NCBI GenBank assembly: GCA_963674945.2
Contig: CAXXWQ010000003.1
Location: 448,001 to 512,000, forward strand
Reading direction: 5' to 3'
Source of the DNA: an uncultured Desulfosarcina sp.
Lineage (GTDB): Bacteria > Desulfobacterota > Desulfobacteria > Desulfobacterales > Desulfosarcinaceae
Length of the DNA stretch: 64,000 nucleotides
The stretch's first letter is position 1. Every line of letters starts with the position of its first letter. The position numbers and the translations under genes were made by a program. Below the pieces are notes generated by a model that did no database searches, was not told where the DNA came from, and saw only the letters and a program-made list of their open reading frames with translations. Below are positions 21,159 through 41,244 of the stretch, in pieces.

Positions 21159-21929
21159 CTACTTCTTCCCCTGCCTTCCATTCACCTGCTCCAGACACAT
21201 CAAGGAATGGGCGAAGGCGATAAAACGCTCCAGGTACGCCGGCGAGAGGTCCTCCATGGCTTCGAGGCAGCACGTGGAGATCATCTGACCGTTGAGGTGT
21301 CCGGGATTCTCCGGAAGATTTCGGACGGCGTCCGCAACAATCTTTTTTGCGCCTTGCCTCGCCAGGGTCCGCCGGAAAACCGCAAAGGAACGAAGCCTGC
21401 CGGGATGCCAATCCCCTGAGGCGCTTCCTTTTCGAATAAAGTCGTCAAAGGCGCCGATGATCCGGGCCTCCTGATCTTTGAGCAGGTGGTCCAGAAACAG
21501 GCGATTGTCATCCAGGCTCGCGTTCTCTCCCACCTTTTTCAACTCTTGGATCAAGCCCGGGAGAAAACCCTGGTCCGTATGATTTGATGACGTCCGGACG
21601 GCCTTTTTCAGGGCCTGGAAATCACCCTTTTCCAGAAGTCGATGTATCTTTCTGGCCGATTCCGGGTCTTTCGACCGGATCCGCTCCATGTCCGCCCGCA
21701 CCGCCTCTTGGGCCGCATCCAGCCGTTTCGAAAGAGCGTCCAGCAGATATTTTGCTCTCTCCTCGATTTTCCGGCGAATGGATGGACGCATTTTCGCAGA
21801 CCGCCGGACCAGGGAGGTGACATGGCGGAACCGGACCGGTTCGAATCCATCGGCACCTCGCTCCTGCAAAGCCCGAAGGCGCGATTCCATCGTTCCGGTG
21901 GTTTCCATGGTCAGCGATTCTTTGTCCAT
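21159..21929 (-). CDS. DUF2894-like protein (ZorG-like)
   Basis: GADGFEPVRFRHV..L.RR and PENPGHLN..M....LEAM..LSPAYL.RF, recognised as DUF2894 patterns. Last gene of the four-gene cluster. Confidence 0.75.
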   Translation of the reverse strand: MDKESLTMETTGTMESRLRALQERGADGFEPVRFRHVTSLVRRSAKMRPSIRRKIEERAKYLLDALSKRLDAAQEAVRADMERIRSKDPESARKIHRLLEKGDFQALKKAVRTSSNHTDQGFLPGLIQELKKVGENASLDDNRLFLDHLLKDQEARIIGAFDDFIRKGSASGDWHPGRLRSFAVFRRTLARQGAKKIVADAVRNLPENPGHLNGQMISTCCLEAMEDLSPAYLERFIAFAHSLMCLEQVNGRQGKK

Positions 21930-21936
21930 GTTCGAA

Positions 21937-22572
21937 TCATCGGGCTGACCCACGCCTGTTTTTCGGGACAGGCGCGATTTCCACCCGGCGATTTTTGCTG
22001 CGCCCCGGTTCATCGAGATTGTCGGCGACGGGATGGTTCTCGCCAAAGGCGGCGGCGAAGACCAGTTCACCGGGCATTCCCTCTTCGATCAATGCCCGGG
22101 TGACGGTGAGCGCCCGCTGGGCGGACAGCTCCCAGTTGTCATGAAACAGGGGATTGTCTCCATGAATCGGCAAATCATCGGTAAACCCGCTGACCATCAA
22201 TAGTTCATCCCGGTCGCCGAGATAGGCGCAAAGGGGACGGACCAGGGTTTGAAGCAGTTCCCGTCCTTCGGCCTGGAGCCGATCTGAATTGAGCGCGAAC
22301 AGGACACTTCCACTGATGCCGATTCGGCCATCTTCCAGGGTGATCCTGCCCGTCGCCAGCGGGTCGGCCAAAGCGTTTTCCAGAAGCATGCGGCGCTCCT
22401 GTTCCACCTTTCGTCTCTGCACCTCTGACTTGAGCGACTGTGACAATTCCACCTGGAATCCCATCGTCCAGACGAGCAGCAGGACGAAGACGCCCACCAG
22501 TCCCGACATGAGATCGCCGAAAATCGCCCAGATGGGCGGGTTATCAGAAGGGACGGACGCTAACGGTTCCAT
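21937..22572 (-). CDS. MotB/OmpA-family protein (ZorB-like)
   Basis: TM segment with the conserved Asp (WAIFGDLMSGL); peptidoglycan-binding domain GFTD, NWELSAQRA, NRRVEI. Confidence 0.9.
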   Translation of the reverse strand: MEPLASVPSDNPPIWAIFGDLMSGLVGVFVLLLVWTMGFQVELSQSLKSEVQRRKVEQERRMLLENALADPLATGRITLEDGRIGISGSVLFALNSDRLQAEGRELLQTLVRPLCAYLGDRDELLMVSGFTDDLPIHGDNPLFHDNWELSAQRALTVTRALIEEGMPGELVFAAAFGENHPVADNLDEPGRSKNRRVEIAPVPKNRRGSAR

Positions 22573-24845
22573 TGTTCCCCCCCGGTCTCTTCTCCGTTTC
22601 GTCCGTCGAATCGACCCAGGACGGTTAACATCTCCTGCTGGGAGAGCATGCAGTGGTCGATGATCTCACGTGCCTGGGCCACGTAGTACCCCATCTGTTC
22701 GTCGCTCCGCATCGCCGTCTTGTCGAGGGAGGCCTCGATTCGGGAAAGGTTCTCCATGAGATTGGCGTTGGATGCGTCGAACCGCTCCACGGCGGCAGAA
22801 AAGGCATCCCCGAGACTGGCCAGTTCTACCGCACCGGCGGCAAACGCGTCTGTGACATCGGAAAAATGGTCGGCCTTGCCATCCACCCGTTGGGCGAACC
22901 GGGCGCCGATCTCTTCCAGCATCTGTTCGGACGTTTCCACCATTTGTGCGATGGTCCCGTGGGTATCGGCGCTTGTTTGCACCAGGGCGGCGGAGAGGTT
23001 CGCGAACTCTGTGGCCAGTTGCTTCTGGGCCTGGAAAAGACCGGCGTCTTGCTCCATGCGATGAGCGGACGCCTCTGCGATACGGGCGATGAGGTCCATG
23101 GCTGCCTTCGGGGCTTCCGACGCCGTTTCCACCAATTTCACCATGGGTGAAGCGATTTCCTCTCCCAGGGTGGAAAGATGATCGGCCACCTCGGCTTCCA
23201 GCCGGGTGAGTCGTGTGACCGTGTCCCGGCCCCGAACTGCCTCTTCATCCCGAATCTCGTCCATTGCCGTGGCGAGGGTCCGGATAAGGTCCGCCATTCG
23301 CTCCTGATGCCCGTTGTACCATGCCTCTTCCATTTTCTCGCGCGATTCGATCAGATCTTGTGATGTCTTCACGACCCGTGCCGTCTCTCCTTGTATTTGA
23401 GTTCCGGCCTTCCTGACGATTCCGGTCAGTTCACCGATGTTTTGTTTCAGGGCGTCGCAATGGTCCAATTGCCGATTGAGCGCCTCTCTTTCCGCGGTTG
23501 TCCATGCATCGGCAACGGTTTCGGACGCGGCGAGCAGCTTTCCCGTGGCCGAGGCCATCACCTCATTGTGCATTGTGACGGCCCGATACAAATCATCGAC
23601 ATGGGCCTTCGTGCGTTCATCATACAGCCTGGTGCCCTCTTCCCTGGCCTTGTCCAATGCGTCGATCCACAATTGGAGACGCTGTTGGTCGCTGGTTTGT
23701 TGGTCGGCAATCCATGATTCGGTTCCTTTGGAGAATGCCGACGCCACGGACCGGACCATGGCACTCCACATCTCTTCCAGTCGGGCAAGGGCCGCTTCTG
23801 ATTTTTCAACCAGCCGTGCATTGGAACGATTATGCTCCGAAATACCGTCCTGCCAGGATTTGACAACCGTTTTCGAATGATCCGCCAACAGACGAGAAAT
23901 CGACGACCAACTCTCTTGGTTGGTTTGGGTCAGATGCGTGTGAACCTTGTGTGTCTCTTTTGCGATGCCGGTCATGGCCTTTGCGACGACGGGCTCGATG
24001 GTATCGGACAATCTCGCAATGTTCTCTTCCAGGTATTGTTTGAGGGACCGATCCAAAGATTCCGCAAGGGTTGCAAAACGCTTTTCGGCGGCCAGGTGAA
24101 AGGATTCTTGATGTTGCACCATATTCCCGGCCAAATCCGTCAATCGATCCGCCATTGCCGATAGCCGGCTCGCCACGAGGGGCAGCGCCTCGGTTTGCAC
24201 CTGAAGCGATCGAAACGTTTCCCGTTGGCGATAGGTCCAGGAAAATTGTCTGAAAACCGTGGGAATAAAAGCATCCAGTCTCCGGACGGCAACGATTCGA
24301 TCCCGTCGGCTCAAGGTGGACATGAGTCCCAGCATGGCGGACGTCGCCACGCCGGCAACGGAGGTACCGAAGGCCTGACGCAGCCCATCCATGGGCGCCA
24401 CCAGGCCCTCACGGATCGCCTGGAGTTCCGTGGTTCCCGAAAGGGCGGATACGGCGCCTTTCAATGTGTCGACCATCCCGACGAAAGTACCCAAAATGCC
24501 CAACATGATCAGCAATCCGACCAGATAGGGCGTCAATACCGGTGCGGGAAGGCCGACGCGCTCGCCTTCGACCCGGAGCCGGACTTCGGTTCGCAAAGAC
24601 GGATGGAGGCGTCCGAGCCAGGGTTCAAGGTCTTCGGCGATCCCATCCGTATTGTCCAAGGCAAGGCAAAGCGTCGTGGTCCCGCGCCGGAAAGCAACGA
24701 GTTCGTAAATGCCCACGAGGTAAACACACCCGGTGATCAGGGTGATGGAAAATGCCAACGCATCGGTCTGCAAAAATACCGCACCCATGCCGATGACGGC
24801 CGTGGCACCCAAAAAAAGTGCTGAACCGAATAATACTCTATCCAC
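22560..24845 (-). CDS. MotA/ExbB-like membrane protein with a very long helical tail (ZorA-like, DUF802-type)
   Basis: TM motifs LGILGTFVGM and AFGTSVAGV, followed by about 570 aa of helical/coiled-coil sequence. Overlaps the MotB-like gene. Confidence 0.82.
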   Translation of the reverse strand: MDRVLFGSALFLGATAVIGMGAVFLQTDALAFSITLITGCVYLVGIYELVAFRRGTTTLCLALDNTDGIAEDLEPWLGRLHPSLRTEVRLRVEGERVGLPAPVLTPYLVGLLIMLGILGTFVGMVDTLKGAVSALSGTTELQAIREGLVAPMDGLRQAFGTSVAGVATSAMLGLMSTLSRRDRIVAVRRLDAFIPTVFRQFSWTYRQRETFRSLQVQTEALPLVASRLSAMADRLTDLAGNMVQHQESFHLAAEKRFATLAESLDRSLKQYLEENIARLSDTIEPVVAKAMTGIAKETHKVHTHLTQTNQESWSSISRLLADHSKTVVKSWQDGISEHNRSNARLVEKSEAALARLEEMWSAMVRSVASAFSKGTESWIADQQTSDQQRLQLWIDALDKAREEGTRLYDERTKAHVDDLYRAVTMHNEVMASATGKLLAASETVADAWTTAEREALNRQLDHCDALKQNIGELTGIVRKAGTQIQGETARVVKTSQDLIESREKMEEAWYNGHQERMADLIRTLATAMDEIRDEEAVRGRDTVTRLTRLEAEVADHLSTLGEEIASPMVKLVETASEAPKAAMDLIARIAEASAHRMEQDAGLFQAQKQLATEFANLSAALVQTSADTHGTIAQMVETSEQMLEEIGARFAQRVDGKADHFSDVTDAFAAGAVELASLGDAFSAAVERFDASNANLMENLSRIEASLDKTAMRSDEQMGYYVAQAREIIDHCMLSQQEMLTVLGRFDGRNGEETGGEQWNR

Positions 24846-25012
24846 AATGGTATCTCTTTTGTTCTTGTGTCCGGTGCCGGTTTGAACCGGTACCGGGTAT
24901 GGATTCGTTGTATTCGAACCGGGTGACGTACACCCGGAACCAACCCGAATGATGGAAGTGCTGACGTGCTTTTGGATGTCCGGCCGATGGACCGAATATC
25001 CAAGCCACCCGC

Positions 25013-25810
25013 TTAGCGGGTGTTCGTTGACTCGATGAGTCCCAGCACCGGTTGGAGTCTTGTATCGAGTTCGGCCAAAAGCAGATCACGCATCTTGACG
25101 GTGAACCCGCAAATCCATCCCCCCGTTGCCATCCAGTTGGCAAGGTCGCGGGCAACCGGCTCGTCGGGCAGTTCATGCCAGTGGGCCTCGAGTTGCCGTC
25201 GAAAGTCCGACGCCAGAAGCATTGAAATTCCATCGAAAACACCTATGGATCGGTTGGTAAGCGCCGATTGGATCCCGCGATCCAGGGTTGCAAGCCTGGC
25301 AAGTGCTGGTGAAAGGCCGCACATGGCGTCTCGGATGCGGTCCTGGAGACCTTCGATACGGGCTGCAATCCGGGTCTGTCGGTCGAGGTAAAAGCGTCCG
25401 AACGGTTCGAATGCCGCCTGGTGGTTTTCGGGAAACGCCGAACGTGTTTTCCCGTATACACCGGAAAACCGCAAATGGGCATGATATTCCGCGGCAGAGG
25501 GCAGCCTGTTCTTTGTTTTGGTCCCACCGGCGCCGGAGGCGAAGCCCTGGGCGATGAAGCGCAACAATGCCTCTCGTTCGCGGAAAAAGGCCTTTTCGAT
25601 GACAGATGGTGTTTGCTGTGCCGGTTTCGCGGTTGTCGAGGATAGGTTGTCGAGCATCTTCGACAGGGTAACGCGGCCGGAGAGGTCCAACAGGCTTCCC
25701 AGGCTTTCGTCAAAACGCCCCGCCGGTTCCCGTATATCCAACGCCGCGAATTCCTGCAGGACCGCCATCAGTCGGGAGTCATGGTAAAAGTCAATTGTCT
25801 TTTTCGTCAT
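25013..25810 (-). CDS. DUF3348-like protein (ZorF-like)
   Basis: F.PF.RFY...Q..I...I..L..RIR....SP.LARLA.LD and LLLAELDTRLQPVLGLIE, recognised as DUF3348 patterns. First gene of the cluster. Confidence 0.75.
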   Translation of the reverse strand: MTKKTIDFYHDSRLMAVLQEFAALDIREPAGRFDESLGSLLDLSGRVTLSKMLDNLSSTTAKPAQQTPSVIEKAFFREREALLRFIAQGFASGAGGTKTKNRLPSAAEYHAHLRFSGVYGKTRSAFPENHQAAFEPFGRFYLDRQTRIAARIEGLQDRIRDAMCGLSPALARLATLDRGIQSALTNRSIGVFDGISMLLASDFRRQLEAHWHELPDEPVARDLANWMATGGWICGFTVKMRDLLLAELDTRLQPVLGLIESTNTR

Positions 25811-25855: not shown

Positions 25856-25901
25856 CCCCTACATATTGAGTCTCGACCGATCAATATACAATATATAGTG
25901 C
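25856..25901. promoter_or_regulatory. Tandem NrdR-box-like operators
   Basis: CCCCTACATATTGAGT (25856-25871) matches 12/16 and ATACAATATATAGTGC (25886-25901) matches 14/16 of the consensus acaCwAtATaTwGtgt. Centres are 30 bp apart. Confidence 0.65.
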
Positions 25902-25994
25902 TCAGGCGATATCATACCGATGGTGCCTTTTCAATGGAAAATCATGTTGAGAAGATGGTGAAGAAAGTTTTCGGCAGTGAACGGATACCCGTAC

Positions 25995-26026
25995 AAAAAA
26001 AATGGCGGGGAGCGTCTCCCCGCCAT
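25995..26026 (-). terminator. Intrinsic terminator of the dsrMKJOP operon
   Basis: Stem ATGGCGGGGAG/CTCCCCGCCAT followed on the minus strand by 8 T. Confidence 0.88.
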
Positions 26027-26054
26027 CATCTCTTCTTATCGTCGGCAATGATGA

Positions 26055-37525: not shown

Positions 37526-39286
37526 TCAGCGCCCCAGTTCCAGAACCGTCTTCACCTGTTGCCACACCGGACTGTCGGACAGATTGTGCTGGTGGTCCAC
37601 CGCCTTTTGGACGCGACCGAAGACACGTTCGATCAGGCGCCCTTTCCCCGCCGCCATGCGCACCACTCCCTGCAAAAGAAAAAAGCTGAGCAGCAGAATC
37701 AGAAGTATGGTCCAGAAGGCGTGGAGGAAAAAGTCACCGGAAAGAATCGTGCCGGAGAAAAACTTGGTGGCGGTCAGCCATGCCGAATAGCCCAAAACGA
37801 CTAATACGGGAAGGTTGAAGAGAAGTTGGAGGAAACCGTTGCTCAACCTGCGGGCGACCCTTGTCAACTCCGATTCCAGTGCATCGTTCCAGATCTGGTA
37901 AAGATGTGCACCGATTTTCTCCTTTTGCCCCAAAACTCGGTCGTCGCCGCGTGTAGCGGCGGAAAACCGGGCCCGAACCAGGGTCTCGGCGATATCGGGC
38001 CACCTGCGGGAAATGGCGCTATCGTATCGATAAAGGGCCATATCCGCACCCTCCCCTCCATCCGCGGCCGCAACCGCTTTTTTGGATTCGGAAAATTGAC
38101 GGAGGACGGACACGGCACCGAAAATCTGATGAAATGGATTGCCGAACCGAAACAGGGAAGCCAGACCGGTGCCGAAAACCAGAATGCGGCTCCATATGGC
38201 CACCATCCAACCGACGGGTCCCAGCCATCGTTGGGCAAGCTGCTGGTAAAGACGGACATTGAGGCCGGATGCCAGTGCATCGCCATCGGTACGAAATGTG
38301 GCTACTGCCTGCCCCAGGGCCACAGACTCGGTCTCCTCCATCTGTGTCAGGGCCGATTCCAGCAATGTACGCTCTTTTCCCGCTTCCTGGGAAATGGTTT
38401 GCGTAAGATGCGCGGCGAGATTACGCGCGTTTTCAAGCCGTCGATCCACGGAGTAGCCTGATCGGTTAAAGGTCTTTTCGATCAGGGTGCGAAGCTGTTC
38501 GAACTGGTTTCGGTCATGTTTGGGCATGGCGGTTTCCGCCCAGGACGGATCATGGAGTCGGCTTCGGGCGGAAACGCACAGCACTGCGGCGGGCTTTGCG
38601 GACCATGCCTCTTTGATGTACCGGTCGAATTCGGGCATGATGGTCTCTGTCAGCTCGGATACCTCCAATCGATCGCACTTGTTGACCACGACCACCAGAC
38701 TGGCACCGGAAAACAGTCGTACGTAAGGCGCCAGGAAATCGGTATGGTCCCGACGTTTGGGATTCTCCCCGTCGAATACACAGATCAGGACATCCGACAG
38801 GCCGATGGCCTGGTGGATGATGGGAATGTGCCTCTCTTTTCGAGTGCTATCCGTATCCGGAGTGTCGATGAGGATGACGTTCTCCAGTCGGTCTGCCGCC
38901 TCACTGGCATGAATCCGAATATTCTCTCCCCCCAACTTCTCCACCAACTGGTCTGCATCCGCACGTTCCCGACAAAAGGCGACCACATGTTCGGTGGTGG
39001 GCCGTCGATGGCCGGCGGGAGACAGGTCGTCCTGGCCGGCCAGGGCGTTGAGCAGTGTGGACTTTCCCGAGCCGCTGGGACCGACTAGGGTGACCACCAG
39101 TTTCCTGTCGAACCTTTCGGCCAGTCGATCCAGCATCGCCAGGGCCGCATGGCAGCTCTTTTGAAGCCCGGACGCTGGACGCCACAAATCCAATCCGGCC
39201 AGCATCTTTGCGAGGCCTTGAATATCCGTTCGTACGGTTTCCAGTTCGGCCATGGCCCGAAGGCGGGTAATCTGTGAGTCCATCAT
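37526..39286 (-). CDS. Dynamin-like/Era-like GTPase with C-terminal TM hairpin
   Basis: G1 GPSGSGKS, G2 RPTT, G3 DTPD, G4 NKCD; helical stalk; two hydrophobic helices near the C-terminus. Confidence 0.85.
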   Translation of the reverse strand: MMDSQITRLRAMAELETVRTDIQGLAKMLAGLDLWRPASGLQKSCHAALAMLDRLAERFDRKLVVTLVGPSGSGKSTLLNALAGQDDLSPAGHRRPTTEHVVAFCRERADADQLVEKLGGENIRIHASEAADRLENVILIDTPDTDSTRKERHIPIIHQAIGLSDVLICVFDGENPKRRDHTDFLAPYVRLFSGASLVVVVNKCDRLEVSELTETIMPEFDRYIKEAWSAKPAAVLCVSARSRLHDPSWAETAMPKHDRNQFEQLRTLIEKTFNRSGYSVDRRLENARNLAAHLTQTISQEAGKERTLLESALTQMEETESVALGQAVATFRTDGDALASGLNVRLYQQLAQRWLGPVGWMVAIWSRILVFGTGLASLFRFGNPFHQIFGAVSVLRQFSESKKAVAAADGGEGADMALYRYDSAISRRWPDIAETLVRARFSAATRGDDRVLGQKEKIGAHLYQIWNDALESELTRVARRLSNGFLQLLFNLPVLVVLGYSAWLTATKFFSGTILSGDFFLHAFWTILLILLLSFFLLQGVVRMAAGKGRLIERVFGRVQKAVDHQHNLSDSPVWQQVKTVLELGR

Positions 39287-41244
39287 CCTCTCTTTTCCAA
39301 AATGCGGTCGAGTCCTGCCAGCGTCTCATCCATGGCCGCGATTCGGCCATCGGCCTCTTTGACGAGGTTACCGCCAAAGTCCAATAGGGGGGCGGTGATG
39401 GTATCGTGGAACATGGTGTCGATGGCCTTTAATTTGTGTGTCAGCCATGCCCGGGCCACGGGCGCCAAAAGCGCCTCCAGTTGTCTCACATCTGCTTTCT
39501 TCATCCCGGCCGTGGCGGGTATGGCAACAAGGGCGTACAGATCGTTGAGACCGAAAAGCCCTGCCAGCTTTACTTTGATGCCCGTTGCCCCCACGGGGTC
39601 ACCGGTATGCAGAACGTACGTAACGGCTGCCGTGGCGGGGATGATATTGAGCATGGCGGAGAAGGTCTGCCGAATCTGGTCAAAGGTGGTCATCCGGGCG
39701 CGCTGTTCGTCCACCAGTCGTTTAAGTTCGTTTTCCAGTTGAAGGGTAAGGTCCAGGGCTTGATCCCGATTCGCCATCATCTGTTCGATGGTCGCCTCCC
39801 AATTCAACGATTGAACACGTTTCCGGGCGTCCGAGAGGGCCGGATGCGCGGGAACGGTCAATTCAATCATCCCCGATTCGGTCCTTCGCTCCGAGACGCC
39901 GGGCAAGCCGGAAAGTCGCCGGACCGATGTGCAAAGGGAATCGATACCGGGAGTGGCAGTCGATAGCCGGACAGTAATTGTCTGGTCCACCGCCGCACGG
40001 CGCAAACGGTTGGCTGCCCGGACGAAATCGGCCTCCATGGTCGCCGCCATTTTTCCGCCGGACGGATCCTTCGCCCGCCCCTTGCCTTTTCCGCCGACCC
40101 ACCTTCCCACACCCATCAACAATCGGACCGGTGTTTCCACCACCCGTCCGGTGGTCCGCATGATCTTTACATGGGAGGGGTCCGCCTCCTGCCAAATCTC
40201 TGAAAACCGACGGATCACCGCATCCATGGGCAGGTGCCCCAGCGCATCCTGCACGCATTTTTTTTGCATGGCATCCAAAAGGTCGAGGTAGGTGGCAAGA
40301 TGGTCCTTCGATGCCCGCGCCGATTGGACGAACCCATGGCCTTTTTCAATCACGTCGGCAAAAACCGAACGATGGAGTTCGCCGCGAAGCTTTCGCGGGT
40401 CGATTTGTTCCAGCGCCTCCAAAAGACCGGGCTGTGCCCCATCGACCGGTGTGATGGCCATGGACTTTTGACCGGCCGCCACACGGTTGTCCTCATCGGC
40501 ACGAAATATTCCCAGTACGTGCCTGTCGGTGTCTTCCCCGTAAAGGTTTCGGGCTACCGTCTGGGCATGGGACCGGACCTCCGCGGCGGTAAAACTGGGA
40601 TACACCCGGTAGACCAGCATGCATTTTCGAATCCCTACGGTGGTGAGCATGCGGGCGATGAAATCGGTGTTGTCCCGATTGTTGTAGTTCGCGTTGGTAA
40701 AGATGTAGATGAACACGTCGGCTGCATGCAAAGCTCGCTCTGCCATGTCGCGGTTCTGATAGCTGCCCTTGGACCCGGTATCGAAATCCGGCGTATCCAT
40801 CAGGGCCAGACCCGCCGGTAACGCCGTGCTGTAGGAAAGAAGCGGATCGCCGACGGTGGTCAACTGATCCATGTGGGCCATCTCTTTCGGAGGGTACCCC
40901 AGGGGCTCGAAAAGCACTTCGGCGATTTGTGGCGTATGGCGGTAACTGGCACGGATGGAAACGAGAAGTCGCCGGTTGATACCGGCCCTGCCGCCCGTGG
41001 GCGAAATAGCATGACCGACGAGGGCGTTGAACAGTGTTGACTTGCCCGAGGAGCCACCGCCACAAATGGCCACCGCCAGGGGAAACGATGCCATGAGGCG
41101 GGGAATCAGGCGCGCGTCCACCGCCGCCGTCCACTCCCGGATATCCGGTTGCAGTGCCGGCATCAACCCGTCGACCAGGGCGCCCGTCTCTTTTTTCAGA
41201 GACCTGAGCCCGTCAATGGTCTCTTCACTGTACAATGGGTCCAA
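39283..41244 (-). CDS. Dynamin-like GTPase with atypical G4
   Basis: G1 GGGSSGKS and G3 DTPDFD; no NKxD (LVYRVY instead). Overlaps the partner gene by 4 bp. Confidence 0.8.
   Translation of the reverse strand: MDPLYSEETIDGLRSLKKETGALVDGLMPALQPDIREWTAAVDARLIPRLMASFPLAVAICGGGSSGKSTLFNALVGHAISPTGGRAGINRRLLVSIRASYRHTPQIAEVLFEPLGYPPKEMAHMDQLTTVGDPLLSYSTALPAGLALMDTPDFDTGSKGSYQNRDMAERALHAADVFIYIFTNANYNNRDNTDFIARMLTTVGIRKCMLVYRVYPSFTAAEVRSHAQTVARNLYGEDTDRHVLGIFRADEDNRVAAGQKSMAITPVDGAQPGLLEALEQIDPRKLRGELHRSVFADVIEKGHGFVQSARASKDHLATYLDLLDAMQKKCVQDALGHLPMDAVIRRFSEIWQEADPSHVKIMRTTGRVVETPVRLLMGVGRWVGGKGKGRAKDPSGGKMAATMEADFVRAANRLRRAAVDQTITVRLSTATPGIDSLCTSVRRLSGLPGVSERRTESGMIELTVPAHPALSDARKRVQSLNWEATIEQMMANRDQALDLTLQLENELKRLVDEQRARMTTFDQIRQTFSAMLNIIPATAAVTYVLHTGDPVGATGIKVKLAGLFGLNDLYALVAIPATAGMKKADVRQLEALLAPVARAWLTHKLKAIDTMFHDTITAPLLDFGGNLVKEADGRIAAMDETLAGLDRILEKRG

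Follow-up and report, generated by a model that had tools for sequence, protein, structure and literature searches.

The promoter of a Zorya type III operon in an uncultured Desulfosarcina sp. carries a pair of 16-bp boxes that, judging by their sequence, very probably form a functional operator for NrdR. A known operator would here serve a new class of target. The boxes are located in the window, i.e., the whole stretch of 64,000 nucleotides that was analyzed. Taken as a whole, the findings are probably best explained by repression of the Zorya genes by the NrdR of the host via this pair and by their release when dATP falls or NrdR is titrated, maybe during phage replication.

The Zorya operon and its promoter

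Four minus-strand genes beside the boxes make up a complete Zorya type III system, with best PADLOC matches to ZorG3, ZorA3, ZorB3, and ZorF3. The description of this motor operon as Zorya-like in an earlier note on this DNA is thus borne out by matches of all four genes to type III models. The first gene of the operon (25013-25810, 265 aa) encodes a DUF3348 protein (ZorG3, E 1.5e-42; Pfam PF11828). It is followed by zorA (22560-24845, 761 aa; ZorA3, E 3.8e-193), by zorB (21937-22572, 211 aa; ZorB3, E 3.4e-102), whose product is MotB/OmpA-like (PF00691), and by a gene for a DUF2894 protein of at most 303 aa (21159-22070; ZorF3, E 4.1e-35; PF11445). Hence, zorA and zorB are flanked by DUF3348 and DUF2894 genes in four open frames on one strand, the arrangement by which Zorya type III is recognized. 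The same components, i.e., ZorA, ZorB, DUF3348, and DUF2894, are described in one operon by Payne et al. (2021; PMC8565338), whose text calls DUF3348 ZorF and DUF2894 ZorG, opposite to the PADLOC models. In that paper, phage protection by Zorya type III is shown only for a Stenotrophomonas system, with inducible expression in E. coli. Unlike this published system, the clade represented in the window comes from sulfate reducers and carries the operator; by its gene content, it is a putative anti-phage system.

The zorG-zorA gap of 167 bp (window 24846-25012) contains a 17-pair hairpin at 24865-24902, which could affect expression of the downstream genes. Elsewhere in the window (37526-41244), dynamin-like GTPase domains are found in the products (586 and 653 aa) of two adjoining minus-strand genes.

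Upstream of the Zorya promoter lies a dsrMKJOP-type operon, the last gene of which belongs to the NrfD family (PF03916) and is presumably dsrP. On its 3' side, a terminator-like hairpin on the minus strand (26001-26027), consisting of a 12-pair stem and then a T run, separates the two transcription units, in agreement with the earlier proposal that the dsr operon ends upstream of the Zorya operon. The boxes are found within the 244-bp gap between this hairpin and the Zorya genes.

Box 1, which is promoter-proximal (25886-25901, minus strand; 15.3 bits), and box 2, which is promoter-distal (25856-25871, minus strand; 13.6 bits), are separated by a 14-bp linker. The earlier note had placed two 16-mers with 14/16 and 12/16 matches to an NrdR consensus at exactly these sites, 30 bp apart and 46-91 bp upstream of the minus-strand start at 25810, and both the sites and the distances were confirmed. 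Six highly conserved positions of NrdR boxes, C4, A6, A8, T9, T11, and G13, are defined in PMC13584703, and each box has all six, i.e., 12/12 over the pair. Between C4 and G13, 8/8 and 7/8 positions are A or T, above the threshold of at least 63% given in the same paper.

To score the pair, as the earlier note had proposed, a matrix was trained on the box pairs that precede nrdD in 28 relatives; the own genome was excluded, as was one locus where the upstream DNA was too short. When the 7.1-Mb genome was scanned with this matrix for boxes 30-32 bp apart, the pair of the Zorya promoter came third, with 28.9 bits. It is bracketed by the pairs of the genome's own nrdD (30.4 bits) and nrdJ (26.6 bits) and so scores like genuine nrd operators. 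With the consensus of the earlier note, just two pairs (both boxes at least 12/16, 30-33 bp apart) are present in 7.08 Mb, one before the Zorya operon and one before a CBASS type II operon. Pairs of at least 17 bits occur 10 times at 30-32 bp vs. 0-6 times at each of 11 control spacings. It is very improbable that the match is a mere by-product of an AT-rich promoter with no regulatory role. The consensus is indeed AT-rich, and acquired defense loci often have AT-rich promoters, but none of 3000 dinucleotide shuffles of the intergenic region reached 18 bits (maximum 12.3). Furthermore, a pair of at least 18 bits is present in just 9 of 4558 upstream windows and in 4 of 1000 AT-rich ones, and the boxes are conserved between homologous promoters, whereas the linker is not (see below).

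The linker of 14 bp in the window, vs. 15-16 bp in homologues, is inside the range of 14-17 bp given in PMC12051234. According to Table 5 of that paper, boxes with a 14-bp linker are still bound by NrdR in vitro, although binding was weaker than with 15 bp, ~2-fold for the protein of E. coli, 3-fold for that of S. coelicolor, and 13-fold for that of S. pneumoniae, i.e., for three of the four proteins tested. A 30-bp period is also found at the nrdD promoters of three of the 28 relatives. We have little doubt that the pair in the window is a real NrdR operator, to which NrdR is predicted to bind.

A regulator that could occupy these boxes is available. Absence of nrdR would have spoken against the earlier note, but an intact gene without stops is present in the genome (TIGR00244, 194 bits, above the cut-off). 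Its product contains the Zn-ribbon cysteines, the RRRR motif, and Asp15 and Arg17, which are described as the base-reading residues in PMC13584703; the same paper reports that NrdR proteins bind heterologous boxes. The reductase loci of the genome are three class I/II-type large-subunit loci and one nrdD. A small subunit of a class I reductase was not found in this genome, which is 98.7% complete, and hydroxyurea, suggested earlier as a probe, is therefore a poor test in the native host.

Upstream of box 1, a sigma70-type promoter is predicted on the minus strand, with the -35 sequence TTGAAA at 25929-25934 and an extended -10 element at 25906-25914, which consists of TG, one base, and the hexamer at 25911-25906. 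The earlier note had pointed to TATGAT at 25911-25916 as the -10 hexamer. This sequence is present, but as a -10 element it is probably 5 bp off. It is just 12 bp from the conserved TTGAAA, vs. 17 bp for the shifted element, and its A is lost in 3 of 15 box-bearing homologous promoters (L263, L284, and L126), whereas TG-n-TA, with TTG(A/T)AA 17 bp before the TA, is kept in 15/15. For these reasons, the -35 and -10 elements were assigned to 25934-25929 and 25911-25906, respectively. Box 1 starts 4 bp past the predicted -10 element in the window and 4-5 bp past it in 14 of the 15 promoters, and the predicted position of this element would place the transcription start site within box 1.

Conservation among ZorG homologues

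Homologues of ZorG were collected by an alignment search, from which the best 80 of 431 and the best 80 of 436 matches were used; a single-protein search of the genome contigs had given no matches. Because a phylum-wide sample of 401 genomes contained just one in which ZorG was found, searches were made at the order and genus level, and a family search covered 301 genomes of the same order and 31 of the same genus. One locus (L285), a weak match below the cut-off, was left out, and two loci from the family search with promoters identical to those already in the set were counted once. In a quick tree, 16 ZorG sequences of sulfate reducers (L284 and L359 not included) form one clade with an SH-aLRT support of 100; pairwise identities within the clade are 26-75%.

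Of 18 distinct promoters in this clade, including that of the window, 15 share the promoter and box 1, in the order TTG(A/T)AA, 17 bp ending in TG-n, a TA-hexamer, and a box 1 with the six key positions. Over the box pair, at least 11 of the 12 key positions are present in 14 of the 18 promoters and all 12 in five. Box 2 is the more variable of the two: C4 is absent from it in 9 of the 15 box-bearing promoters, and that of L279 lacks two key positions. According to PMC13584703, NrdR may no longer bind when a critical C or G is lost. Both promoter and boxes are missing at three loci (L281, L283, and L125), which can be explained by two changes on the tree. These counts should be read with the relatedness of the loci in mind, since six of the 15 box-bearing promoters form one close group, which leaves ~10 independent sequences. 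For two loci, L252 and L263, there is some circularity, since they were originally picked by the box pattern. However, the subsequent protein-family search revealed four Zorya type III loci in the 31 genomes of the same genus, all with 12/12 key positions, one of which (L359) was new and came to light after the matrix had been fixed. In 90 between-group pairs, mean identity was 0.72 in box 1 and 0.56 in box 2, vs. 0.33 in the linker and 0.30 downstream; the boxes are thus preserved, unlike linker and flank, at ZorG identities of 30-75%. As the neighboring genes vary between the Zorya loci of the clade, the operator travels with the Zorya cassette.

Outside this clade, the picture is different. 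Among 122 distinct promoters of distant homologues, mostly beta- and gammaproteobacterial, none has at least 11 of 12 key positions at spacings of 30-33 or 41-43 bp. Thus, conservation of paired boxes upstream of DUF3348-led operons, as anticipated in the earlier note, holds for one ZorG clade (14/18) but does not extend to the other promoters (0/122). From the sequences compared, NrdR control looks ancestral for the Zorya clade of the window and sporadic for other defense systems.

In betaproteobacterial Zorya type III promoters, a GCTGACC-like element is shared, followed by TTTGTAGTAG ~55 bp before the start; examples are found upstream of zorG in L056, L081, L085, L122, L151, L173, and L188. 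The TTTGTAGTAG-like motif was considered as half a box and rejected, because a partner is absent at both 30-33 and 41-43 bp; it is probably a promoter element. A search of viral contigs with the Zorya promoter pattern gave two matches and was uninformative; the one examined is inside a coding region.

Box pairs before other genes

The 10 best pairs of the genome precede nrdD, nrdJ, the Zorya type III operon, a CBASS type II operon, an SspBCD-Pbe operon, a PDC-M48B-type operon, two min operons, a gene for a sigma54-type activator, and the aprBA/CxxCxxCC-gene region. Four of these 10, i.e., Zorya III, CBASS II, SspBCD-Pbe, and one candidate, are defense-type operons, which corresponds to a binomial p of ~0.001 if 5% of the promoters are defense promoters, an assumed figure. 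The CBASS operon comprises genes for a cyclase, E1-E2, JAB, and a 2TM effector, and its pair (22.7 bits) is located ~130 bp upstream (G000:C3:2017025-2017072; 7026-7073 in L002). A capP-like gene is oriented divergently near this pair, and two layers of control may meet there. A pair of 22.4 bits (G000:C4:2405584-2405630; L205) precedes an sspB-sspC-sspD operon with PbeA- and PbeC-like genes behind it; further upstream, this locus has a third box-like sequence. The candidate has a pair of 25.4 bits (G000:C3:2374726-2374772; L204) before an unannotated gene of 219 aa and a gene encoding a metallo-beta-lactamase fold; the latter, second gene of this two-gene operon matches the candidate defense model PDC-M48B.

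In relatives, Gabija, TIR, and cyclase loci with pairs were encountered as well. A strict pair pattern matched 113 sites in 55 of 61 genomes, 75 of which were listed, vs. one site in 61 genomes for a control pattern with the wrong spacing (27-29 bp period). Among the matches listed, 39 sites not belonging to nrdD were examined: four precede defense genes (two Zorya III, one Gabija, and one TIR/ThsB-like), four precede nrdJ, seven belong to the aprBA region, and at the others the downstream genes are varied or unclear. A pair of at least 15 bits directly upstream was found at 2 of 15 cyclase loci. None of 11 other sspB promoters has a pair, nor has any of 24 GajA-like loci from a family search. 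The two cas1 loci of the own genome and its helicase/methylase candidates are likewise without a pair, save for one artefact at an IS end and the CBASS pair itself. The link of NrdR pairs to defense is selective, and most other defense loci tested have no pair.

Pairs and boxes are also found at genes for housekeeping functions. Two of the 10 best pairs belong to the min operons (G000:C4:1640747 and 1556146). At smc-like genes, a box of at least 14 bits is present in five of six loci of relatives (L349-L354), and the own smc has a weak pair of 12.2 bits ~200 bp upstream (G000:C3:208836). These sites suggest a link to chromosome segregation and division. A conserved pair is situated between aprBA and a divergent gene, mostly of the CxxCxxCC family (L244, L247, L259, L260, L261, L272, and L275; G000:C4:2772537), and a box-like site is present upstream of dsrA (G000:C4:2283227), so sulfate-reduction genes may be part of the NrdR-type regulon. 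The min, smc, and apr genes are what we take them to be from their protein sequences. The top-scoring pair of the whole genome (32.3 bits; G000:C4:435282-435329, L206) precedes the gene for the sigma54-dependent activator. Several genomes of the same genus contain sequences similar to the nrdD promoter (box, TTGACA, box) without a nearby reductase gene (L255, L257, L258, L264-L267, and L273). Such copies, three of which are near an FHA-GGDEF gene, may drive a short unannotated transcript. In the panel for NrdR in a regulon study of 196 genomes, the targets are nrd genes, yfaE, trxA, topA, and four locus tags (PMC5343134).

The housekeeping sites bear on the main rival explanation, according to which the operator is real but belongs to an expanded housekeeping NrdR regulon that couples Zorya to growth and chromosome replication and gives no phage alarm. 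Zorya would then be on in dividing cells and off when DNA synthesis halts and dATP accumulates. The pairs or strong boxes at min (2 of the 10 best pairs), smc, and the aprBA/CxxCxxCC region (7/39) fit this explanation, as does the statement in the introduction of PMC13584703 that dATP rises and NrdR represses when DNA synthesis is halted. The accumulation of defense-type operons among the 10 best pairs, with the p-value given above under the assumed 5%, argues against it, and we consider it unlikely, though not negligible. Growth coupling and a phage alarm are not mutually exclusive.

A further alternative is that the boxes are bound by another protein with a similar target, such as an autoregulating Zorya subunit or a lineage-specific repressor. 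Strong boxes without a partner occur by the dozens in the genome. Among them are the ends of an IS1595-family element, whose terminal repeats each contain one strong NrdR-like box (G000:C3:2019368 and 2020348 in L002, and other copies), with 24 such ends counted in the genome. Apparently, sequences of this 16-mer shape also serve in other contexts, and the frequent absence of C4 from box 2 is also in line with a different binder. However, the matrix was derived from nrdD promoters, the spacing of three helical turns is specific for NrdR, and the same pair precedes unrelated operons without any Zorya protein. Moreover, a site for autoregulation would be expected to accompany the system, yet none of the 122 distant Zorya III promoters has the pair. 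Binding by another protein is, hence, improbable, and NrdR remains the preferred regulator.

Predicted control by dATP and its meaning

The published biochemistry of NrdR suggests how the operator may work. With ATP alone, NrdR does not bind DNA, whereas in the presence of both dATP and ATP it occupies the two boxes as a tetramer and causes repression (PMC9110341). By analogy, as long as dATP is plentiful, NrdR would occupy both boxes over the predicted start site, where the tetramer in its dATP/ATP state would block RNA polymerase, and the Zorya operon would be off. When dATP falls, NrdR would be released and the operon would be switched on; such induction of Zorya by falling dNTPs is likely, given the known mechanism of NrdR.

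Phage DNA replication could drain dATP and thereby derepress Zorya. A second route to derepression would be the titration of NrdR by phage-borne operators. At least 120 viral stretches match the strict pair pattern at a 31-bp period, vs. 10 at 26 bp. Phage infection may be the cue for which the operator was selected, although this is the least certain step. During infection of S. pneumoniae with the lytic phage SpSL1, the operons with NrdR boxes were reported as the most upregulated host genes (PMC6755750), and expression of Zorya III genes of Stenotrophomonas was reported to rise with phage present (10.64898/2026.01.02.697320). Replication stress, which the earlier note had named as a cue, can have either effect, because dATP rises when synthesis halts and the operon would then be repressed. 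Also, where a phage breaks down the host DNA, the dNTP pools could grow and the operon could stay silent.

The operator resembles those of reductase promoters, such as nrdAB, nrdHIEF, and nrdDG of E. coli and nrdRJ of S. coelicolor, as described in PMC9110341, PMC12051234, and PMC13584703: two 16-bp partial palindromes with six key positions, approximately three helical turns apart, over the site of RNA polymerase, which is a predicted one here, with nrdR in the same genome. It differs from them in its target, which is a putative anti-phage operon, in its linker of 14 bp instead of the usual 15-16 bp, and in its binding by NrdR, which is predicted. An NrdR target outside reductase operons has a precedent in topA of P. 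aeruginosa (PMC4409342), but topA has one box and is activated, whereas the pair over the predicted start site in the window has the geometry of repression. Operators at a defense promoter and repression, which is predicted here, are also features of the defense-island repressors BrxR/CapW, CapR, C proteins, and RptR as presented in PMC12255303. Those regulators are encoded with the defense system, whereas the predicted regulator of the Zorya operon is a core nucleotide sensor of the host that is encoded elsewhere and responds to dATP/ATP. A literature search, with subscription papers mostly outside its scope, yielded no description of NrdR control of a defense system; in PMC13670838 and PMC13756637, NrdR is mentioned but given no role in the regulation of defense genes.

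Tentatively, and with more doubt than confidence, NrdR could be a shared infection alarm in this group of sulfate reducers, with the operator acquired independently by Zorya III, CBASS, SspBCD-Pbe, Gabija, and TIR systems. If so, a phage that drains dATP or titrates NrdR would turn on the defenses together with the reductases it needs. Little is known about how defense systems are turned on at the right time, and most regulators reported to date have their genes within the defense locus. With a core metabolic sensor as the switch, immunity would be linked to a quantity that a phage can hardly leave unchanged when it replicates. Zorya type III is the least studied of the subtypes, and the predicted operator would offer a first handle on its native regulation.
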